A stretch of 64,000 nucleotides of DNA from Clostridiales bacterium. GTDB lineage: Bacteria > Bacillota > Dehalobacteriia > UBA7702. The stretch covers positions 13,251-77,250 of the forward strand of contig JAXGQJ010000009.1 in NCBI GenBank assembly GCA_040766505.1, read 5' to 3'. Under the pieces are notes generated by a model. That model was given only the letters and a program-made list of their open reading frames with translations. It had not been told where the DNA came from and did no database searches. The position numbers and the translations under genes were made by a program. Position 1 is the stretch's first letter. Every line of letters starts with the position of its first letter. Shown one piece after another: positions 54,462-64,000 of this stretch.

Positions 54462-54884
54462 TTACTTTTTCAGCAGGGAAACGAGCTTCCAAAGGGCGGC
54501 GAAGAAGAGGATGGCCGGTAAAACCGGCGGGATCGGGGCAAAGAAGCCGAAAAAAGCGGGGAGAACGCCCATTTGCAGCAAGATGACCGCGCCAAACAGC
54601 TGCTGGGGCAGCAAGATGAGGCCGAGATACAGCAAAGAGAACAGCAGCGCCGCCACGAGGGAACCGCGCCGTTTTGGCTTTTCCCGGCAAAGGAGCAGGC
54701 TGAGATAGGCGACAACCAGAAAAGCCAAGGCCAAAACCGCGAGATAAGCGGCGGAAAAGGCCCCCCATTGTTTGCCCTGCCAGACCGGGCCGAGGCCAAT
54801 CTCATTGATGACCCGGTAGGCATAGAGGAAGAGCAGCGGAAAAAAGGCGAACAGCAGCGCCTTGAGATAGAGGGGAAGTTTCAA
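54462..54884 (-). CDS. hypothetical polytopic membrane protein
   Basis: Four or five hydrophobic helices. TTG start after an AAGGAG RBS. Last ORF of the Mo-enzyme-associated operon; no recognisable motif. Confidence 0.45.
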   Translation of the reverse strand: MKLPLYLKALLFAFFPLLFLYAYRVINEIGLGPVWQGKQWGAFSAAYLAVLALAFLVVAYLSLLLCREKPKRRGSLVAALLFSLLYLGLILLPQQLFGAVILLQMGVLPAFFGFFAPIPPVLPAILFFAALWKLVSLLKK

Positions 54885-54959
54885 AACGATCTCCTTTCCA
54901 CAGTCAGATGTCCATTGGCGGCATAGCGCCGCCATATCCGCTTTGGCCGCTTATTCGGA

Positions 54960-56094
54960 TCATCCAAATGATCCGGGATCGGCCGGGCCGTTTCCGGGGG
55001 ATTCCGACGCGGCGGCGGCGGTTTTTTCGGCATCGACGCCGCAGGCGGCGATTTGGGCCGCAACGGCCCTGGCCTTCGCTTCCCGTTCCCGCAGGGCCGG
55101 CAGATCGCCGAAGCGTTCATAAGCGGCGGCGAAACGGCCGGCGATGCCGACGAAACGATCCCCCATGACCATCTTATCGGCGAGAAAAAGTAGATCCTTT
55201 TCGGCCAGGATTTTTTCGGATCGATGCCGTCCCATATGGGCGCCGACAAGAACCGCCAATTCCGGCTGGCCGACGGCGAGGAGCCGCCCTTTGGCGACGG
55301 CGGCGTGGCCCCGTTCCCCTTGGCGAGGTCGTGAACGCGGCCGGCGGCATACACCGCCGCCCCGTCGAAGGAATGGCCCCGGCGGTTCAAAGCTCTCTGC
55401 CAGGCCGAGGCGGCGGCGGCCACCCGGTCGCAATGGGCTTGGAGTTGGGGGGGAAGGGGGGCCCGGGCCAACAGGTCCGCCACGAAAGCGAGGGGATCCC
55501 ACCGGGGGCAGGCGGCCGCCAGCTCCCGATATTCCTCTGGGGTGTCCATATCCCGCAGGATATGGGGATCCGGCACCGCCACCTCCTCGCCGCGATAGCG
55601 GCCCAGCAGGCCCCGGAATCCGTCGGGCCAGTCGCCGCGGAGAACCTCCCGGCCGATGGCGGCGGAAACCAGGATGGGATGGCCCCGTTCCCCGGCATAG
55701 ACGGGGTAGAAGAGCGGGCCGCCGCTTTCGGCATAGCGCCGCCACAAACGGCCCGGGGTATCGGCGGCGACCCCGGCAATGTCGGCGGGGTGCAAAAAAA
55801 ACATTTGGCGTTCCGGCGGCAGGCTAGCGATGCCGCGGCGGAGGGAAGAGAGCATGCCCTGCCGATAACCGGCATTTTCCACGAAGGTCACCTCTTCCCG
55901 GAAAGAGTTTGGCGGCAATCTCCTCCCGCCGGTGGCCCAAAACCACCCGGATATCGTCAATGCCGGCGCCGAGATAAGCGCCGATGACCCGATCCAGCGC
56001 ATACCGCCCCAATGGCAGCAAAGGCTTCACTCCCCCCATCCGAGAGGAAAGCGCCGGCGGCCAGGATCAGAGCGGCGGCCCGTTCAGCGCCCAT
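54960..56094 (-). pseudogene. MocA/MobA-like molybdenum-cofactor nucleotidyltransferase fused to an HD-domain, at least 2 frameshifts
   Basis: MGAERAAALILAAG..SSRMGGVKPLLPLG (NTP_transf_3 motif), ...FLHPADIAGV..., then an HD domain (AHCDRV...GRVHDLAK...) whose end is in ORF 54960..55745. Confidence 0.7.
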
Positions 56095-57132
56095 CGAAGC
56101 ATGCCCCAAAGCCCGAACGGCGATCAGTTCCCCGGCGATGCTGACGGCGATTTCCTCCGGCGTTTCGGCGCCGATTTTGAGTACCGCTGATCGGCGCATA
56201 GCAGCGGGCGATTTCCGCATCGCTGAACCTTCCTCCTGCAAGGCGGTAAAGACGGCCTTTGTCTTCTTGCGGCTGCCGATCATGCCGATATAGCGCGCCC
56301 CCGTTTTCAAACAGGCCGCCAGCACTTCCTTATCATGAAGGTGGCCCCGGGTCAGAATCACGCAATAGGTATCCGAGAGATCCCCCAAACCCTGAAATAG
56401 ATCGTCTTGAAAAGAGCCGAGCACCCGTAGCCATCGGCGCCGGGAAAGCGCCACCACGGCAACCTCCCGGTCGTCCATGACGATGACCTCGAAGCCGACG
56501 CTTTTTGCCACCGGGGCCAGTTTTTCACCGACATGGTCGGCGCCAAAGACCAATACCCGGCCGTCGGCCCCCAGCGGTTGCAGGTACATCCGGCCGTTTC
56601 CGATAGGGTGAATACGTCATAGCCCTTCATCTTATGAAGCAGCCCCGGTTCCCCCAGGAAAGCGGCCGACGCTGCCGTCGGCCAGGATCAGGCATTGGCG
56701 GCAGGCCATGCCCTGGCCGGATTTTGCCCCGGTTCCGGCAAGTAAAAGCCGTGCCAACCTTTTGCGCGGTGGATCACATCCTCCAATGCCTGATACACCT
56801 CCCGGCAGGCCATATCGCCGCCGTTCACATAGTCGATCCAGATTTCCACCTCGCCACCGCAGGCCATGCCTTCTTCCGCCGCGGAACCGGCTTTCATCTC
56901 AAATTCCAGCAAATGGGGACAGGCGGTTTCCAGCACTTCCGCCCCCGCCGCCCGGGCCGTCGCCTCCACCAGGCCGCCGCCGATGGTGCCGGCGATGGTG
57001 CCGTCGGGCCGGATCAGCATCTGGGCGCCGGTATGCCGCGGCGTATGCCCTTTTGCGCCACGATGGTGGCCAGGGCGAAGGAATCGCCCTCTGAAGCAGT
57101 TCCTGGGCGGCGGTGATGATTTCTCTCGTCAT
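56084..57132 (-). pseudogene. XdhC/CoxI family molybdoenzyme maturation protein, about 3 frameshifts
   Basis: MTREIITAAQELLQRGDSFALATIV, then MLIRPDGTIAGTIGGG (ORF 56688..57020), then the Rossmann part VLVFGADHVGEKLA...YIGMIGSRKK (ORF 55957..56589). Confidence 0.75.
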
Positions 57133-58436
57133 GGTTCTCTCTTCCTTTCCGTCTTGGGTGGTTTGCGCCGGTCGTCGATGGTACGTTTCCAGGTACCCCG
57201 GTTTTCAAAGCCGGTCAGCGGCGTGAAGCGGAAAGCTCCAGCCGCCAGCCGCTCCCCGGCAGCAGAGTGCCGCGACGGCGGCCCGCACCGCCGCCCCGGA
57301 CGGGGCACGAATACCGGCGACGTCCAGCAACAGCGCCTTTTCCTCGATGGCGGCGCGAAAATCCAGTATTTCCGGCAGGGGGAACAAAGCCCTTCATCCA
57401 ACTGCGGCTGGGAGAGGGCAAAGCCTTCTTCAAGGTCACGATGCCCCGCAGCCGGCCGGAAACCGGGCCAGGCGGCGCAAAAGCTGCCGCAGGAAGGCGA
57501 CGTCAGAAAACGGCTGTCCCCGGTGCGATAGCGGATAAAGGGCGCCTTGCCGGGTTAAGGTGCTGAACACCACCTCTCCCTCTTCTCCGGCGGGCAAGGC
57601 CCGGCCGGTGGCGGGATCGACAATTTCCAGCAGCAGATCCATTTCCCGCAGATGATAACCGTCCCGGGCGGCGCATTCCACGCCGCCGCCGAGGCCCGTT
57701 TCCGTCGTGCCATAATGGGCAAAAACCCGGCATTGCCACAGCGATTCCAGTACGCGGCAGAGGGATTTCGGCACATAATCGGCGCTTAAAAGCACCGTAT
57801 CGATATGGGCCCGCTCCCGATTGCCCCTTTCCCGGCCATAGCGGGCCAGGGCCAAAACCTGGTTGGGAATCCCCACGATGCAGCGGGCCCGGGAGGACAG
57901 CAGCGCCCGATAGGCGGCGTCCAGGTCGGCGACGGGGCCAAAGGCCACGCTGCCAATTTCTTGGCGGGCCAGGCCCTTCGCCAACAGATCGCCGATGCTG
58001 CCGGGCCGCGCGCCGGGCATCAGGATCAAGACCGGGCCCGGCGGATCCACCAGCGTGCGCATTCCGTGGGCAAAAAAATCTATCGTCAATTCCTGGTCCG
58101 CCCCGGTGAAAAAGACCCGTTTGGGGCCTCCTTCGGTGCCGGAGCTTTCCAGCGTAACGATGCGCTGGATCTCCTTGGCCAACGCAGCCAGGACAAAGGA
58201 TCGGCCCGCAGCATGTCGGCATCGGTAAAGGGCAGCGCCGCCAAATCCCCGGGGGTTCGCAGCTCCTCCAGGGCGATGGCGGCGAGATGGCGGCGATAAA
58301 AGGCGCTATGGGATCGCGCATAGGCGACGGTGCGGCGCAAACGCCGCAACTGCTCCGCTTCCAGAGCGGCGGCGTCGGCGGCTTTGCTTCCCGCGACGAT
58401 CCAGGCCTCCAGTGGGGTGACGGGCAGCGTCATCAT
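57129..58436 (-). pseudogene. PaaK/F390-synthetase-like adenylate-forming ligase, several frameshifts
   Basis: MMTLPVTPLEAW...AFYRRHL (ORF 58086..58436), the AMP motif LESSGTEGGPKRVFF, and YGTTETG (ORF 57436..58182). The C-terminal domain is scattered over frames down to 57129. Confidence 0.7.
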
Positions 58437-58873
58437 TTTTTTGCGCTCTCTTCTCTCATTTCTCTCATTTCTCTCATTTCATCCAGATCAAAACCGTTTT
58501 CAAACAGGATCTCTTTCGCTTGCAGGTAAACGTTTTCGATCAGGCCGGGGCAGACTTGGACGCGGTTTTGCATGTCCCCTTTTAAGATTTCCAGGCAGTC
58601 GACATTGCCATAGGCCTCTTGAAACCATTCTGACAGTTCCGGCACCATTTTATCCCTGGCCAATTCTTTATTAAAAAGCCCCAGCATGCAAGCGCCGCCG
58701 GAAAGCGCGCCGCAAAGCTTGCCGATCCGCATACCGCCGCAAAGGGTGGCAACGGCGTCCACCATCTGGGCGTTCTCTTCGCCCCTGGCTTCGAGGCCCA
58801 TCGCCACCAAAACCTGGGTACAGCACAAACCGCTTTCCACCAATGCGCGAACCCTTTTTATATCGTCGCTCAT
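58433..58873 (-). CDS. C_GCAxxG_C_C family (putative redox-active) protein
   Basis: SGLCCTQVLV, LCGGM...KLCGALSGGACMLG, NVDCLEI..VCPGLI. ATGA-type overlaps at both ends. Tail EMREMREMREE. Confidence 0.75.
   Translation of the reverse strand: MSDDIKRVRALVESGLCCTQVLVAMGLEARGEENAQMVDAVATLCGGMRIGKLCGALSGGACMLGLFNKELARDKMVPELSEWFQEAYGNVDCLEILKGDMQNRVQVCPGLIENVYLQAKEILFENGFDLDEMREMREMREESAKK
58451..58477. repeat. perfect 9-bp x3 tandem repeat (encodes MRE-MRE-MRE)
   Basis: TTCTCTCAT repeated at 58451-58459, 58460-58468 and 58469-58477. Confidence 0.9.
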
Positions 58874-59550
58874 CTTTTTTCCTCCTTTTCGGCGGCGATC
58901 AGGCAATATCCTGCTTTTCCGCCGCCTTTCTCACATTTTTCATCCCATCTTTTAGCGTTTTTTCCCCCCAGAAAAGCAGCGGGGGGAATGCCGTTCCAAA
59001 CCATTTCCGCCGCCAGAGCGGCCAAAACGCCGCTTTGGTCGGAAAAATGCAGGAGCCGGAAGGGGGCAAGCAAGGCCTCCAGCTCCTGCCGGTTTCGCAG
59101 CATCTGCCCTTGGCAGCCGGTGACGGATCCCGCCCGGCTGTAAAGGTCGGCGATGACGGCGACGCCGCCGGGCTTTAAAACCCGGCGCATTTCCGCCACC
59201 ACCGCTTTGGCGTCGGCGACGAGGGACAGAACGCATTCCGCCAAAACCCCGTCAAAAACACCGTCGTCAAAGGGCAGGCGTTCCCCGACGGCGGCAATCA
59301 GTTCCAAACCGGGGTGGAGCTCCCCGGCCCTGGCCCGCAGCAGCGGCGAGGGCTCGACGCCGACGGCCTCATAACCATAGCTTTCCCGCAACAGCGCCAC
59401 GGTGGCTCCATCCCCGGCGCCTATGTCGAGAATACGGGCGGCGGCGGGAAAGGCGGCCAAGGCCAGGGCCTTCTCGGTCAGCGCCCTGCCGCCGGGGTGG
59501 AGCTTCCCTCCCAGCGCCGCTTTCGTGGCGGCGTCCTCATACCGTTTCAT
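58870..59550 (-). CDS. class I SAM-dependent methyltransferase with a Cys-containing C-terminal extension
   Basis: ILDIGAGDGATV (motif I), LKPGGVAVIADL, and a C-terminal part with GCQGQ and KCEKGGGKAGYCLI. Its stop overlaps the next start. Confidence 0.75.
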   Translation of the reverse strand: MKRYEDAATKAALGGKLHPGGRALTEKALALAAFPAAARILDIGAGDGATVALLRESYGYEAVGVEPSPLLRARAGELHPGLELIAAVGERLPFDDGVFDGVLAECVLSLVADAKAVVAEMRRVLKPGGVAVIADLYSRAGSVTGCQGQMLRNRQELEALLAPFRLLHFSDQSGVLAALAAEMVWNGIPPAAFLGGKNAKRWDEKCEKGGGKAGYCLIAAEKEEKR

Positions 59551-59554
59551 AGGC

Positions 59555-60898
59555 TTATTTCCTTCGGTACAGGCCTTGCCCTGCCTCATTCGTCACTTGA
59601 TAAGCGCAGAAGGGAACCAGCCTTTCATCGGCGGTCAGCACCTGCACCCGGCACTTTTGCAGCCGATCCACATCAAGGTTCCAAACGTCTTGAAAGGCCA
59701 TGCCCGTCAAAGTGAAACCGTCCTCCCTGAGATGCCGCAGCACCCGGTCAAAACCGTCCTCTTCTCCGCAGCAACCGCCGCCGTTTTCCGGCAGCGTCCA
59801 TTTGTTCAAAACGAAATCCCGGTCTTTGGCGACGATCTCTTCCGGCGTGGGGCAGCAGCAGCCGCAGCTTTCCGCCGGTTTCATCGCCAAGATGCCGTCG
59901 CCCTCCCGCAGGAAAGCGCCATAAAAGCAGCAGAGGGGATGCCCCGTCTGCAAGGGGGCGAGATCCTGCCGCCTGATCTTGCCGCCGGTCTGTTTTTCCA
60001 GCTCGATCATCACCGTATCGAGGGTGACCCGGCCCTCCTCCGGCGGCGGCCCGGGATAGCGGCCAAAATAACTGACCGGCTGGAAGTGGATGCCCCGGAC
60101 ATGGGGCATATGATCGAGCATGAATTGGAACATCGCGCCGATTTCATGGACATTGACGCCGGGGGTCACCGTCGGCACCAAGGTGACCGGCAACCCGGCG
60201 GCGGCGCAATGCTCCACCGCCTGCTTCTTATTGGCGAAAAGGGGTTCCCCCCTCAATTGCCGATAGATCGCGTCGTCAATGCCGTCAAATTGCATAAAGA
60301 CGACGGACAAGCCCGCCTCCCGCAGCGTTTTCGCATAGGAGGGATCCTCCCCCAGCCTGCGGCCATTGCTGTTCAATTGGATATAGGTGAAGCCTTTTTC
60401 CCGGCCCATGGCGATGATGGCGGGGAGATCCTCCCGCACCGTCGGCTCGCCGCCGGAAATCTGGATATTGAAGGGCCGCTCTTCTCCCCATTCCCGCAGC
60501 CGGTCATACCATTGGGCGATCCGCTCCAAAGAGGGGTCGGCGGCGGGGCTTTCATTGGCCGAGGCGAAGCAGAGCGGGCACTTTTGATTGCAGCGCATCG
60601 TTACGTCCAACAGCACGCAACAGGCGGTCTGTTTATGGTTGGGGCAAAGGCCGCAATCGAAGGGGCAGCCCTTGTCCGTTTCGGTTTGGGGCAATCGCCC
60701 GGGAATATTGGTGGTTTCCACCATCCATTGGGAAAAGGAAGCGGCGTCCTCCCAGACCAAGGTGGTGTAGGCGCCGTGTTCCGGGCATTCCTTCACCAGA
60801 TAGACCCGATTGCCGTCCTGCCGGTAGGTGGCGGGAACCCGTTTCAAGCAGCGGGGGCAAAGGCTTTCGGTCGCCGAAATTGTCTTAGCATCGCTCAT
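59555..60898 (-). CDS. radical SAM enzyme with an N-terminal zinc-ribbon and a large C-terminal domain
   Basis: CPRC...CPEHG ribbon and CNQKCPLC (CxxxCxxC). GGEPT. Cys-rich CGCCC and GGCCG patches. Tail MAFQDVWNLDVDRLQKCRV. 447 aa from M56 of the track ORF. Confidence 0.8.
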   Translation of the reverse strand: MSDAKTISATESLCPRCLKRVPATYRQDGNRVYLVKECPEHGAYTTLVWEDAASFSQWMVETTNIPGRLPQTETDKGCPFDCGLCPNHKQTACCVLLDVTMRCNQKCPLCFASANESPAADPSLERIAQWYDRLREWGEERPFNIQISGGEPTVREDLPAIIAMGREKGFTYIQLNSNGRRLGEDPSYAKTLREAGLSVVFMQFDGIDDAIYRQLRGEPLFANKKQAVEHCAAAGLPVTLVPTVTPGVNVHEIGAMFQFMLDHMPHVRGIHFQPVSYFGRYPGPPPEEGRVTLDTVMIELEKQTGGKIRRQDLAPLQTGHPLCCFYGAFLREGDGILAMKPAESCGCCCPTPEEIVAKDRDFVLNKWTLPENGGGCCGEEDGFDRVLRHLREDGFTLTGMAFQDVWNLDVDRLQKCRVQVLTADERLVPFCAYQVTNEAGQGLYRRK

Positions 60899-60984
60899 TC
60901 GCTCATACCCACACTTTCTGTTCCGATTTAGAGCGGCGCGGCGCAAAACCGGGAAAACCCGTCTTTGGGCCGGTCGCCGGGGCT

Positions 60985-61176
60985 TTATTTGTCTTCCAAG
61001 GTGGCTTCGACCTGGGCGACCTTTCCTTTCACCAAATCTTCGGAGATATAGACCTGGCCGCATTGGGGGCAGACCGGCAGATCCGCCGGAAATTCATAGT
61101 CGAGATAGCGCAAGAAAATCTTGCGCTCCTCCAAGGCCACATTGCAAAGATCGCAAATCGCTTGTTCCGTCGTCAT
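60985..61176 (-). CDS. 63-aa zinc-ribbon (CxxC...CxxC) protein
   Basis: MTTEQAICDLCNVALEERKIFLRYLDYEFPADLPVCPQCGQVYISEDL.... GGAGGAG RBS. ATGA overlap with the stop of the 767-aa gene. Confidence 0.6.
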   Translation of the reverse strand: MTTEQAICDLCNVALEERKIFLRYLDYEFPADLPVCPQCGQVYISEDLVKGKVAQVEATLEDK

Positions 61177-63476
61177 CGCTTCTCCTCCTGAATCTGGAGG
61201 CGGTGGCAATAGACATTGCGGACGCGGTAGCCATCCCCCTCCGGCACATACTCCACCCAATAGGTGATGATGCCGATTTGCAAATGGGCCAGAAAACCGT
61301 CTCCCCGCCGCAGCCGGCGGCGGCTTTTTTCCGCCGCGGCGATCACCTTTTGCACATCTTCGGCAAGGATCAGGAGATCGTCCATCTTTTTCTGCACCTC
61401 TTCGGACAGGAGCAGGCAAATCTTTTCATATTCCCGTTTTTCCATCTTGGTTTCTACCCCCCATTCCTCCCGCAACAACCGCTCCTTCAGCCGCACCCGG
61501 TTTTGCCGCCGGTCGCCCAAAGACGGCGCTTTTCGCGGCTTACCGTCGCCAAAGGCAAGATCCAACAGATGGCAACTGTTCTTCCCCTGGCTGGCAAAAA
61601 CATCGCGGCAATTGGCGCAATAGCAGATATAGTCGTGGGGGCTGGCGGCGGCGCGCTTGGCCCGGATTTCCTTCGTCAGATCCGGGTTCGCGGCATAGGT
61701 CAGCCCACCATAGGTGCAGCATTGGCTTCTTTCGCCGTGATAAGGCAGTTCCTCGACACGGTAACCGCTCTTTTCCAACAGCTTTCGGACAGCATGGCGG
61801 GTCTTGGCCTCCCGCCGGGCGGAACAGGGGTCAAAAACCGTAACGGTTCGCCCCTCTCCCGGCTTCAGGCCGATCTCAGCCCCTTCGGCGGCAAGATGGT
61901 CGATCAGCGAAGAGAATCGCGCCGCCGGGAGATACTGTTTTAACTGCTTCATACAAGAAGGGCAAGCGAGAATCAGCTCCGGCCTTCCCTTTGCCTCCCA
62001 ATCGGCCTCGATTGCCGCCAGCACTTCTTCCATCCGGTCGAGACGCCCGGCCCAGGCCGCCGGCGCGCCGCAGCAGGAAAGCGACAGGGCCACCCGGTCT
62101 TCCCCCAAGCGGCGCTTCAAAAAGCGATAGCTCTCCACCACCACATCGGGATCGGAGGCCCCCAGCTGGCAGCCGGGGAAAAAGAGATATGGCGCCGCCG
62201 CCGCTCCCGCCGGCAAGCGGGAAAGAAAAGCGTCCTCCCCCTGGGTGAAGGCCATATCCCGCAGCCAGAAATCGTGAAAGGTTTCGGGCATTTTGCCCTT
62301 TTCCACCATCAAAACCCTGGCCCCCTGGCAAACGCCGCCCATATCGACGCCTACATGGCAAACCTCCTTGCAGAGGCCACAGAGATTGCAGGAGTTGATA
62401 AAGCGGTTGGAGGCGCTGGGGGCGATGCCCTTGATGGTGTTCAGGCTTTGCACCACATTGCCGATGTATTGCTTCGGCACATCGCGGAAATGCGCCAAAA
62501 ATTCGCAGCCTTTCAAACAATTGTCGCATTTGCATTGCAGGCAGCGGCCGGCTTCGGCCAAAAGCTCCCCCTTATCATAGCCTTCCCCGTCCTGGGGGAC
62601 GATGGCGGCGGTTGGCTCCACCCCCCGGGTTTCGGTATAGAGCTTCGTTTCCACCCGGCCTTCATATTCCCTGTCCAGCACCAGCGAGGACTTTTTTAAA
62701 AACCGCTCGATGGATTTCGCGGCGCGAAAACCGTCGGCGATGAGCTGGCTGGAGGAAACCTCCTCTCCGGTACCGCGAACCAGCGTGCCGCCTACAAAGA
62801 CGCCGGGCCGGGCGCTTTCAAGGGAAATGGGGTGAAAGGCGGGACGCCCCCCTTCCCCTAAGGGCAGCGGAAATCCGGCGGCGCCGGTGGCGATGAAAAA
62901 CACGTCCCCCTCCACCTCGCCAATGTCCTTCACCTCACGGTTGAAGTGGAAACGGACGTCCTCATCGGCGGGAAGGCCGGAAAATGTTTTTTCCAAAAGC
63001 TCCGGCGGCAGCAGCGCCGGATCCGCCTGCCAAAGGGAACCGCCCAGCCGGTCGCTCTTTTCATACAGCTCCACAGGATAGCCCTTGCGGGATAGGTTGA
63101 TTGCGCAGCTCAATCCCGTTAAGCCGCCGCCGATCACGGCGACCAGCCCTTCCTTTTCCGGTATCGAAAACCGGGGCAGCGGGCGTTTTTTGGCATGGTC
63201 GCAAAGCCCCCGTTCGATGCCGCGCAGATCGATGGCTTCGCCCAAATCGCGGCGAATGCAATCTTGGCGGCAGGGGGCATTGCAGGTGCGGCTAACGATT
63301 TCGGGGAACAATACCTGGCTGCGATAGGCCTTATAGTCACCGTTGAAATCTTCCCGCATAATTTTTCCGATCATGCCGCGAACGTCGACATGGAGGGGGC
63401 AGCCATTGGTGCAAAACACCACTTCCTCAGCGACGCATTTCGGGGCTTCTTTGATAATATCGTTTTCGTTCAGCAT
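61173..63476 (-). CDS. 767-aa multidomain flavo-iron-sulfur oxidoreductase (GltD-like FAD/NAD(P) module + 2x[4Fe-4S] + two CCG/HdrD-GlpC-like domains + unknown C-terminal domain)
   Basis: VAVIGGGLTGLSCA dinucleotide fold. CLQCKCDNCLKGC and CNLCGLCKEVC ferredoxin motifs. FFPGCQLG and FDPCSAR...CCTYGG CCG-type motifs. Intact. Confidence 0.75.
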   Translation of the reverse strand: MLNENDIIKEAPKCVAEEVVFCTNGCPLHVDVRGMIGKIMREDFNGDYKAYRSQVLFPEIVSRTCNAPCRQDCIRRDLGEAIDLRGIERGLCDHAKKRPLPRFSIPEKEGLVAVIGGGLTGLSCAINLSRKGYPVELYEKSDRLGGSLWQADPALLPPELLEKTFSGLPADEDVRFHFNREVKDIGEVEGDVFFIATGAAGFPLPLGEGGRPAFHPISLESARPGVFVGGTLVRGTGEEVSSSQLIADGFRAAKSIERFLKKSSLVLDREYEGRVETKLYTETRGVEPTAAIVPQDGEGYDKGELLAEAGRCLQCKCDNCLKGCEFLAHFRDVPKQYIGNVVQSLNTIKGIAPSASNRFINSCNLCGLCKEVCHVGVDMGGVCQGARVLMVEKGKMPETFHDFWLRDMAFTQGEDAFLSRLPAGAAAAPYLFFPGCQLGASDPDVVVESYRFLKRRLGEDRVALSLSCCGAPAAWAGRLDRMEEVLAAIEADWEAKGRPELILACPSCMKQLKQYLPAARFSSLIDHLAAEGAEIGLKPGEGRTVTVFDPCSARREAKTRHAVRKLLEKSGYRVEELPYHGERSQCCTYGGLTYAANPDLTKEIRAKRAAASPHDYICYCANCRDVFASQGKNSCHLLDLAFGDGKPRKAPSLGDRRQNRVRLKERLLREEWGVETKMEKREYEKICLLLSEEVQKKMDDLLILAEDVQKVIAAAEKSRRRLRRGDGFLAHLQIGIITYWVEYVPEGDGYRVRNVYCHRLQIQEEKR

Positions 63477-63521: not shown

Positions 63522-63550
63522 GTTCACCTGCCGCAAAGCGGCAGGTGAAC
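63522..63550 (-). other. strong intercistronic hairpin between the Mo-enzyme gene and the accessory operon
   Basis: GTTCACCTGCCGC-ttt-GCGGCAGGTGAAC (13-bp perfect stem, 3-nt loop), followed only by TTCT on the minus strand. Confidence 0.6.
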
Positions 63551-63591: not shown

Positions 63592-64000
63592 TTATTTCAG
63601 AACCACCAGGGGATTCCGCTTGATGTCCTCGATCTTTTCGTGGAGGTCGCAGCCGAGATAATACTTCTTAGGCTTGACCTGTTCGCCGCGGGCCAATTGG
63701 TCCATGGCGGCTTTCAGCCGTTCCGGGGTGGCGGGCAATTCATAGGTGCGAACGCCGGTGGCATTGTAGACGGCGTTCAGAACCGCCGCGTGGGGCGCCG
63801 AGAGATACAGCTCGGAGCAGCCGACGGAACCGTGGGGGCCGGTGGGCCGGTGGGATTCCACATAGTCGATGTCGAGCTTATCGGGAATGTCGTCAATATA
63901 GGGGAAGCCGCAGGCGACGAGGGAATTGTGCTTCTGCACATCGTCATAATCCTCACTCAGGGCGAGGCCGATGCCTTGGGCGAGGCCGCCATAGGCCTGG
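63592..64000 (-). CDS. xanthine-dehydrogenase/aldehyde-oxidoreductase family molybdopterin-binding protein, C-terminal end only (5-prime part beyond the window)
   Basis: ...GLAQGIGLALSEDYDDVQKHNSLVACGFPYIDDIPDKLDIDYVESHRPTGPHGSVGCSELYLSAPHAAVLNAVYNATG, typical of the Ald_Xan_dh_C2 tail. Confidence 0.75.
   Translation of the reverse strand, partial: QAYGGLAQGIGLALSEDYDDVQKHNSLVACGFPYIDDIPDKLDIDYVESHRPTGPHGSVGCSELYLSAPHAAVLNAVYNATGVRTYELPATPERLKAAMDQLARGEQVKPKKYYLGCDLHEKIEDIKRNPLVVLK

Follow-up and report, generated by a model that had tools for sequence, protein, structure and literature searches.

The 767-residue protein encoded on the minus strand at positions 61173..63476 of the window (the whole 64,000-nucleotide stretch of Clostridiales bacterium DNA that was analysed) is an ordinary member of the catalogued, uncharacterised family NF045663. 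We consider it fairly probable that it acts as the soluble flavin/Fe-S subunit of a three-gene module, made up of a Mop-type aldehyde oxidoreductase, the 767-residue protein itself and a 63-residue Cys4 protein, and that the compound to which it would deliver electrons is not NAD(P).

The 767-codon open reading frame reported in the preliminary description is real and lies on the minus strand. It starts with the ATG at 63476, 8 nt upstream of which stands GGGGA, and its stop overlaps the start of the next gene in an ATGA that is preceded by AGGAGGAG. Translation of the plus strand over 61173-63476 runs into many stops. Residues 7-764 match positions 5-759 of the 759 in the NCBIfam profile NF045663 with 828 bits (cut-off 530), and the match was found again in the genome contigs with the frame intact and free of stops. 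The full title of this family is pyridine nucleotide-disulfide oxidoreductase/dicluster-binding protein, and its short name is diclust_near_Sec. As the match runs from end to end, the fusion that had been called unusual is the fixed architecture of a widespread family that counts hundreds of members and spans at least eight phyla. The same layout, at lengths of 738-792 aa, was found in all of the 120 best among 592 homologues, which rules out a fusion peculiar to this genome. In length, domain order, cysteines and neighbours the protein is like the rest of the family, with no difference of substance, and its AlphaFold model has a pLDDT of 89.6 and a pTM of 0.82. The names of the families around NF045663 are taken from the locus DVU_1551-1559 of D. 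vulgaris Hildenborough, a neighbourhood that is credited to Haft & Tolstoy 2025 (mSystems 10:e0141724), a paper cited in PMC13188914. A full-text literature search returned no function for NF045663 and no functional study of DVU_1557/1558/1559, the NF0456xx families or DUF7479.

That the protein belongs with a molybdenum enzyme is supported by its gene neighbourhood. Directly upstream lies the 3' end of a Mop-type molybdopterin aldehyde oxidoreductase gene (63592..64000, minus strand; NF045668 profile 806-904 of 905, E 1.8e-43), which continues past the window until it is cut by the contig end (G000:C46:76953-78197, profile 490-904). On the other side, translationally coupled to the 767-codon frame, is the gene of the 63-residue Cys4 protein of the DVU_1557 family (DUF7479; 60985..61176, minus strand), which reaches 79.5 bits with NF045645 (cut-off 60) and E 4.7e-25 with PF24292. 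This arrangement is the rule. Among the 41 genomes of the class sample, co-occurrence was complete in that 21/21 NF045663 copies lie directly downstream of an NF045668 gene on the same strand, and in the phylum sample of 121 genomes all copies stand behind the oxidoreductase except one that is split by a contig break. Among the 80 best loci, from at least eight phyla, the oxidoreductase is directly upstream in 69 of the 76 with room for it and within 3 kb in the other seven. The DUF7479 gene follows directly downstream in 28/30 loci and in 78/79 loci, so that the trio is adjacent almost everywhere. The earlier proposal of an electron-transfer partner linking aldehyde oxidation to NAD(P) is thus upheld in its tie to the molybdenum enzyme; the NAD(P) part of it falls, for reasons given below.

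Downstream of the trio the profile searches identified an accessory cassette (54881..61063, minus strand) with a TrsS radical SAM protein, the DVU_1556 methyltransferase, the DVU_1555 C-GCAxxG-C-C protein, the DVU_1553 AMP ligase, an XdhC-type factor and the DVU_1551 NTP transferase. The name TrsS reportedly comes from Haft and Tolstoy in 2025. The ligase gene is frameshifted and occupies two frames, the open reading frame of the XdhC-type factor covers no more than positions 188-345 of a 346-position profile, and that of the NTP transferase starts at profile position 61; with the oxidoreductase gene cut as well, the remark that this is one of the few long genes without a break is true for the operon.

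The cassette gives rise to a different reading, in which the protein would be a reductase of the TrsS radical-SAM system, using the electrons of aldehyde oxidation, which are of very low potential, to reduce the TrsS cluster or to recycle a thiol or disulfide compound that TrsS, the methyltransferase and the ligase would make, with the DUF7479 protein as go-between. TrsS and NF045663 occur in lockstep (14/14 carriers against 0/27 non-carriers in the class sample, and 11/11 carriers in the phylum sample), from which it follows that the role of the protein may lie within the cassette and not in feeding a free acceptor. Consistent with this, TrsS lies no more than 5 kb downstream in 58/80 loci, the DUF7479 gene of one genome (G037) is beside TrsS and not beside the NF045663 gene, and another genome (G040) has an oxidoreductase above the family cut-off and neither an NF045663 protein nor TrsS. 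However, several genomes with only one TrsS have the entire trio in more than one copy. One of them (G028) has five oxidoreductase-partner pairs, four of which have DUF7479 behind them, and its only TrsS lies ∼145 kb away from the closest of these pairs; two others (G014 and G034) have two trios and one TrsS each; and in G028, G014 and G037 TrsS is either distant from the trios or located on a different contig. If the protein were the reductase of a single radical-SAM enzyme, there would be no need of a copy for each oxidoreductase paralogue. We therefore regard service to TrsS as possible, at a rather low probability.

A role as maturation or reactivation factor for the molybdenum cofactor of the oxidoreductase, shared with the products of the XdhC-type and NTP-transferase genes and outside the working enzyme, seems to us very unlikely. 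The gene does stand in the same operon as XdhC-type and MocA-type genes, and oxidoreductases above the family cut-off exist without an adjacent NF045663 gene (four cases: G040, G028:465947, G026:C1 and G026:C35), a finding that also speaks against the subunit reading. On the other hand, every oxidoreductase paralogue is paired with a partner of its own whereas the accessory genes are present once, as expected of a subunit but not of a maturase common to all; only 25/80 and 17/80 loci have homologues of XdhC and of the NTP transferase nearby; and the roughly six redox centres predicted along the chain are more than a maturation step usually needs.

We return to the favoured reading, that of a flavin/Fe-S subunit, and to the domains on which it depends. 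The motifs quoted in the preliminary description were all found again. The Cys-rich segment ahead of the dinucleotide-binding motif is a helical Fe-S domain of the NfnB/GltD/DPD type (residues 3-97; 63186..63470, minus strand; Fer4_20, E 3.5e-18), in which, among 40 aligned members, C22, C26, C65, C69 and C73 are invariant and C14 and D31 reach a conservation of at least 90%. The dinucleotide-binding motif itself, VAVIGGGLTGLSCA (residues 111-124), lies in a FAD-type Rossmann domain (residues 108-264; 62685..63155, minus strand), recognised from structure comparison and from the motifs GxGxxG (116-121), E139, RLGG (143-146), ATG (near 196-198) and GVFVGG (225-230). Where a GGD flavin motif is usual, this protein reads GGT, so that the Asp is lost, and for this reason we only infer that the protein binds FAD.

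The N-terminal Fe-S and FAD parts are alike in the 767-residue protein and in NfnB/NfnI-L, GltD and NfnA/StnC (4ylf_B, 5jca_L, 2vdc_G, 9bov_A, 8oh5_C, 9n5u_A). Structure matches to this group reach E 3e-63 to 1e-32, with VIA Z 23-32, rmsd 2.3-3.4 Å and 26-32% identity over 240-310 residues. For residues 3-97 the comparison gave Z 31.8 to NfnA 9bov_A and Z ∼24 to NfnI and GltD, and for the Fe-S and FAD parts together the comparison with NfnI-L and GltD gave Z 23-25 and rmsd 2.3-2.9 Å over ∼245 residues. What sets the protein apart from the NfnB group is the loss of the NAD(P)H subdomain, the GGT in place of GGD, and a CCG module where a formate-dehydrogenase-like domain would stand.

The loss is evident from a comparison with the 510-residue GltD paralogue of the same genome. 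Residues 22-199 align to 44-229 of the paralogue and 225-260 to 410-442, so that a short loop of 25 aa (residues 200-224; 62805..62879, minus strand) stands for paralogue residues 230-409, where the second motif, GxGxxA, is located. Relative to GltD/NfnB the deletion amounts to about 155-180 aa. Structure comparison likewise found one Rossmann unit in the 767-residue protein and two in 9bov_A, with model residues 16-262 spanning chain residues 46-472, and the model has a pLDDT of 61 at residues 201-210. The short loop is present in 40/40 aligned members, and the entire protein has one GxGxxG motif. Of the two-dinucleotide-binding class to which GltD and NfnB belong, the protein thus has the Fe-S domain and the FAD fold and is missing the NAD(P)H-binding subdomain, which makes it unlikely that NAD(P) takes part in the electron transfer. 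That the protein is nonetheless an NAD(P)H-linked oxidoreductase of the GltD/NfnB type, reducing NAD(P)+ with the electrons of aldehyde oxidation, is hardly credible: it has in its favour the N-terminal likeness and the labelling of homologues as, for instance, 'glutamate synthase (NADPH) small chain', and against it the single GxGxxG and a second Rossmann subdomain that is absent here and in all 40 aligned members.

The middle of the protein holds the remaining Fe-S motifs. The two CxxCxxCxxxC-type clusters noticed earlier form a nine-Cys dicluster segment (residues 305-380; 62337..62564, minus strand), where Fer4_17 covers residues 311-378 (32.6 bits against 22.2) and C312, C315, C317, C320, C324, C363, C366, C369 and C373 are invariant. 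This segment, RCLxCxC ... CxxCGLCxxxC, is shared with NfnA/StnC of the bifurcating NfnABC/StnABC complexes, aligns to 9bov_A 523-628 and resembles HdrC. It is followed by two CCG domains, the first at residues 430-513 (61938..62189, minus strand; C436-x31-C468 C469 G-x35-C505-x2-C508) and the second at residues 545-628 (61593..61844, minus strand; C551-x34-C586 C587-x32-C620-x2-C623). Pfam CCG (PF02754) matches in two stretches with E 1.3e-12, in agreement with the two CCG-type motifs of the preliminary description, and all their cysteines are invariant; with these ten, the invariant cysteines among the 40 aligned sequences total 24. Structure matches support both domains. Among them are M. 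smegmatis EtfD (9ojn; E 7e-17, VIA Z 18.1), of which only chain residues 283-760 align, and LutA (9a6l_A; VIA Z 16.8, 206/238 residues).

A dicluster segment followed by two CCG motifs with ten Cys between them is common to the 767-residue protein and the HdrB/HdrD-type CCG proteins, among them heterodisulfide reductase, EtfD, LutA, GlpC and TfrB. Unlike these, the 767-residue protein has in addition a flavoprotein part and a RelE-like domain, and unlike EtfD it is devoid of a membrane/cytochrome b part and starts directly with Fer4_20. As both HdrB-type CCG motifs retain all ten cysteines, it is plausible that the acceptor would be of the disulfide or the quinone type.

The preliminary description had also considered that the protein might belong to a characterised Fe-S subunit family, which did not turn out to be the case. 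Scores were far below the cut-offs for the Fe-S subunits of lactate, glycolate or glycerol-3-phosphate oxidation (LdhH, 54.8 bits against 800; GlpC, 24.5 against 278) and for TfrB (40.1 against 385).

The last ∼110 residues, in which no motif had been recognised, are indeed silent in Pfam, with no match beyond about residue 640 at E up to 1. The model predicts for residues 685-764 (61185..61424, minus strand; pLDDT 86) a beta-alpha-alpha-beta-beta-beta domain with a RelE/BrnT-like fold. Almost all of the top 30 VIA rows are toxins of the RelE/ParE/BrnT fold, at Z <8, where a match may reflect no more than a widespread arrangement; the best are a Salmonella toxin (7vd7_A; Z 7.7, rmsd 3.0, 80 aligned) and BrnT (3u97_A; Z 7.6, rmsd 2.5, 72/77 aligned), and MqsR (3hi2_D) follows with Z 5.5. 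Foldseek against the PDB found nothing at E <= 0.001 for this domain (best E 0.03), PDB sequence searches with its profile and that of DUF7479 returned chance-level rows only, and the protein atlas gave weak leads (DUF4258 at 0.76). The likeness to the toxins would be one of topology. In these searches we found no sequence similarity to them and no sign of a nuclease, and the domain is here the tail of a redox protein, with T738, W740, Y743, Y756, H758 and R759 invariant.

It is conceivable from natural fusions what the role of this tail could be. In four loci, all in the class sample, the NF045663 protein is fused in frame with DUF7479; none of the 80 best genome-contig loci has such a fusion. 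A search for the stand-alone C-terminal domain returned mostly gene fragments on contigs <2 kb, and a few short proteins (whole genes or fragments) in which the domain is fused to DUF7479. Moreover, complex prediction of the 767-residue protein with the DUF7479 protein scored 0.70, against 0.01 for the best control, a mark that is reached by 58/80 solved complexes and by 2/110 mismatched pairs. At least 88% of the contacts are the same from run to run, and the partner has a pLDDT of at least 82. Together, the four natural fusions and the complex prediction support the predicted docking of the DUF7479 protein by the C-terminal domain. The predicted contacts are confined to residues 718-764 and involve W740, Y756, H758 and R759, all four of them invariant; as they do not reach the CCG domains, the DUF7479 protein is probably not the substrate of the CCG site. 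The small protein itself has C8, C11, C36 and C39 and, in the alignment, an invariant C-terminal E61 and K63; its LEDK tail, likewise invariant, falls outside the predicted interface. By analogy, in the MqsR-MqsA pair (3hi2) a Cys4 zinc domain holds a domain of the RelE fold, the partner here being of the form CxxC...CxxC.

To understand how the three proteins may work together, we consider what Mop-type enzymes have and lack. Mop-type aldehyde oxidoreductases are without the flavin outlet of their xanthine-oxidase relatives, and Mop of D. gigas was reportedly purified as a homodimer without a partner of the present kind and is reported to pass electrons to flavodoxin in vitro, which speaks against the subunit reading. 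Such a partner is not mentioned in the D. gigas genome paper. We argue that the electrons of aldehyde oxidation would leave the oxidoreductase through its [2Fe-2S] clusters and pass, on contact of the two proteins, into the Fe-S/FAD chain of the 767-residue protein. Along the chain, the NfnB/GltD-type Fe-S domain with the NAD(P)H-less FAD domain would be followed by the nine-Cys dicluster, the two CCG domains and the RelE/BrnT-like domain. The CCG site would hand the electrons on to a compound that is not a pyridine nucleotide, our best guess being one of the disulfide or the quinone type, and the RelE/BrnT-like domain would hold the Cys4 protein. What the computations give is the set of domains, the loss of the NAD(P)H subdomain, the conserved cysteines, the neighbourhood of the genes, the fusions found in nature and a predicted docking; the cofactors bound, the direction of electron flow, the contact with the oxidoreductase and the nature of the acceptor are what we infer. 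From general knowledge, the FAD/Fe-S subunits PaoB, XdhB and CoxM would be functional analogues, as flavin/Fe-S outlets of unrelated fold; domain, profile and structure searches here gave no match of the PaoB/XdhB/CoxM type.

A bolder version of the same scheme, which we think quite unlikely, would make of the trio a self-sufficient aldehyde-driven machine resembling HdrABC. The NfnB-type flavin, deprived of NAD(P)H binding and set between two arms of Fe-S clusters, would separate or combine electrons in pairs and so reduce a dedicated thiol/disulfide cofactor made by TrsS, the methyltransferase and the ligase, and the docking pair, a RelE-like domain with a Cys4 ribbon, would be a domesticated module akin to a toxin-antitoxin system.

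To our knowledge, the physiological electron acceptor of the Mop-type aldehyde oxidoreductases is not settled. Since the partner adjoins nearly every Mop-type gene across many anaerobic phyla, it is the obvious candidate for an acceptor partner. Within this window the protein is one more copy of a catalogued family. For the family, the search for the acceptor is narrowed by two facts, namely that the usual way of using NAD(P)H is missing and that the HdrB-type site is complete, and the proposed docking role of the C-terminal domain would offer a testable handle on the place of DUF7479 in the system.

The 767-residue protein encoded at 61173-63476 on the minus strand matches the catalogued family NF045663 ('diclust_near_Sec', pyridine nucleotide-disulfide oxidoreductase/dicluster-binding protein) from end to end, scoring 828 bits against a cut-off of 530, and the match takes in the tail that the preliminary description had left unassigned. 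A protein search returned 592 homologues, the best 120 of which are all 738-792 residues long with an identical set of Pfam domains. At least 393 loci of the NF045663 type turned up in a genome scan, spanning Bacillota, Chloroflexota, Desulfobacterota, Spirochaetota, Actinomycetota, Acidobacteriota, Bacteroidota and Myxococcota, and 24 cysteines are invariant in an alignment of 40 family sequences. Because of this end-to-end match, the homologues, the loci and the invariant cysteines, the fusion is a fixed and old architecture and not the unusual one it had been taken for.

The 767-codon frame is open on the minus strand only. It starts at the ATG at 63476, with GGGGA upstream, and its stop and the start codon of the following gene overlap in ATGA, preceded by AGGAGGAG. 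Pfam places a DPD/GltD-type Fe-S domain at residues 3-97, a single FAD-type Rossmann motif at 112-150, a dicluster domain at 311-378 and two CCG domains, and has no match after residue ∼640. The open frame and these domains bear out the reading frame and motifs first described, with the strand corrected to minus. The AlphaFold model of the protein is confident (pLDDT 89.6, pTM 0.82). A spacer of 115 bp separates the 767-codon gene from the oxidoreductase stop and holds a hairpin with a perfect 13-bp stem (63522-63550), followed on the transcribed strand only by TTCT.

Upstream lies the NF045668 aldehyde oxidoreductase gene, cut by the contig end. Downstream are genes for a 63-residue DVU_1557-family protein (Pfam DUF7479; 60988-61176, minus), the radical SAM protein TrsS (502 residues; 59555-61063, minus), the DVU_1556 methyltransferase, the DVU_1555 C-GCAxxG-C-C protein, the DVU_1553 ligase, an XdhC-type factor and the DVU_1551 NTP transferase; these neighbours are named members of one catalogued neighbourhood. 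The TrsS frame as listed probably starts too far upstream, in a stretch that overlaps the DUF7479 gene, as the family-profile match begins only at residue 64. At 54881-58321 (minus), the ligase is split across two overlapping frames, the XdhC frame covers profile positions 188-345 of 346, and the NTP-transferase frame begins at profile position 61; these breaks look like assembly frameshifts in a 75%-complete genome of 46 contigs.

That the protein is an electron-transfer partner of the molybdenum enzyme, as first proposed, is supported by gene linkage. In a class sample of 41 genomes, 21/21 NF045663 copies lie directly downstream of an NF045668 gene on the same strand, and the same order holds for all copies in a phylum sample of 121 genomes, save one at a contig break. 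Among loci across phyla with room for a neighbour, NF045668 lies directly upstream in 69 of 76 and within 3 kb in the other seven. Linkage to TrsS is also close: TrsS is present in exactly the NF045663-carrying genomes of the class sample (14/14 versus 0/27) and in 11/11 carriers of the phylum sample. Moreover, four oxidoreductases above the NF045668 cut-off have no adjacent NF045663 gene (G040:C22:23431-26157, G028:C1:465947-468655, G026:C1:55184-57895 and G026:C35:48906-51650). Since genome G040 has neither an NF045663 neighbour nor TrsS, the oxidoreductase can exist without partner and cassette. The exact co-occurrence and the four partnerless enzymes mean that the partner may belong with the cassette no less than with the oxidoreductase. 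It could then supply electrons to the TrsS cassette or its product, which we consider unlikely. Genome G028, whose coordinates match those of Candidatus Formimonas warabiya in the genome scan, carries five pairs of oxidoreductase and partner; DUF7479 follows four of these, and the single TrsS is ∼145 kb away from the closest pair. In G014 and G034 there are two oxidoreductase-NF045663-DUF7479 trios and one TrsS each. Having one partner for every oxidoreductase paralogue is what would be expected of a subunit, while the accessory genes follow the pattern of shared machinery; a role for the protein as a maturation factor is improbable.

An NAD(P)H-linked enzyme is the least credible alternative, since the flavoprotein part has lost the NAD(P)H-binding Rossmann unit. 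NfnA of NfnABC (9bov_A) superposes on model residues 15-320 (Z 31.8, rmsd 2.5 Å, 293 residues), and NfnI-L, Xfn and GltD on residues 16-262 (Z 23-25, rmsd 2.3-2.9 Å), where 247 residues span ∼427 of the solved chains. In the profile-to-PDB alignment, 9bov_A has two Rossmann units (200-292 and 322-422) and the family has one. In the host's own 510-residue GltD-type paralogue, residues 44-229 align with 22-199 and 410-442 with 225-260; therefore, 25 residues stand in for 180, and the lost stretch holds the second glycine-rich motif. The short replacement loop is found in 40/40 aligned members. The earlier proposal is supported as to partnership with the molybdenum enzyme and not supported as to the NAD(P) link. 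Flavin binding is putative, since the GGD flavin motif usually seen lacks a conserved Asp here.

The Hdr-like half is complete, as far as its motifs tell. The nine-cysteine segment (312-373) is shared with StnC and NfnA, and the two CCG motifs, invariant across the 40 sequences, follow the HdrB pattern. The closest solved relatives of this half are EtfD of M. smegmatis, at E 7e-17 and Z 18.1, and LutA, at Z 16.8. A lactate- or glycolate-type Fe-S subunit had been named as a competing identity; the protein scores far under the cut-offs of the lactate, glycerol-3-phosphate and fumarate-reductase Fe-S models.

Residues 685-764, folded alone (pLDDT 86), form a beta-alpha-alpha-beta-beta-beta unit. 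Foldseek found no significant match to this model. An exhaustive structural search listed almost only RelE/ParE/BrnT-type toxins, the best being 7vd7_A (Z 7.7, rmsd 3.0, 80 aligned), with BrnT 3u97_A at Z 7.6 (rmsd 2.5, 72/77 aligned), which is suggestive of a RelE/ParE/BrnT-like fold. The invariant residues T738, W740, Y743, Y756, H758 and R759 include no cysteine.

Gene adjacency, in-frame fusions and complex prediction support the suggestion that this domain holds the DUF7479 protein. The DUF7479 gene lies directly downstream in 28/30 class loci and 78/79 loci across phyla. At four loci, one read directly, the two are fused through a linker of ∼19 residues with no stop codon (L043:1507-2088 in G034:C5; L025, L039, L040). 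In a complex prediction, DUF7479 paired with residues 400-767 gave a score of 0.70, and the best control 0.01; of solved complexes 58 of 80 reached that mark, as did 2 of 110 mismatched pairs. The runs share at least 88% of their contacts, and the partner has a pLDDT of 82 or more. The confident predicted contacts all fall on residues 718-764, including W740, Y756, H758 and R759. The C-terminal LEDK sequence of DUF7479 is invariant (notably E61 and K63) and lies outside the predicted interface; it may contact a third protein or serve as a modification site.

A separate 385-residue protein (L035:69-1226 in G023:C54, minus) consists of two CCG domains and the C-terminal domain only (NF045663 positions 380-756, E 2e-97), so the C-terminal domain travels with the CCG module. 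Its gene is placed just after the DUF7479 gene. It also occurs in G053 and G051, with a fragment in G017, all of one genus, which thus has a half copy in addition to the full-length one. Small proteins of 151-170 residues combining the C-terminal domain and DUF7479 (P0151, P0152, P0154, P0155) could be stand-alone fusions or else pieces of longer genes. In genus g19 (G037; loci L019 and L020), DUF7479 does not follow the NF045663 gene; its gene in G037 lies directly beside TrsS (C43:93053-93226), on another contig.

We argue that the protein probably carries aldehyde electrons to a non-nicotinamide acceptor. Electrons would pass from the [2Fe-2S] clusters of the oxidoreductase into the Fe-S/FAD chain of the NF045663 protein and exit through the CCG site; DUF7479, held by the C-terminal domain, would serve as an adaptor or as a small redox or zinc protein. 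Our guess is that the acceptor is of a two-electron, disulfide or quinone kind.

No functional study of either NF045663 or DUF7479 turned up in the literature searches; TrsS is listed in a 2026 review (PMC13188914), with a citation to Haft & Tolstoy 2025. The 767-residue protein is a further member of a catalogued family without characterised function. For that family, the absence of the NAD(P)H subdomain and the proposed docking function of the C-terminal domain usefully refine the picture, and do not make the copy in the window special.
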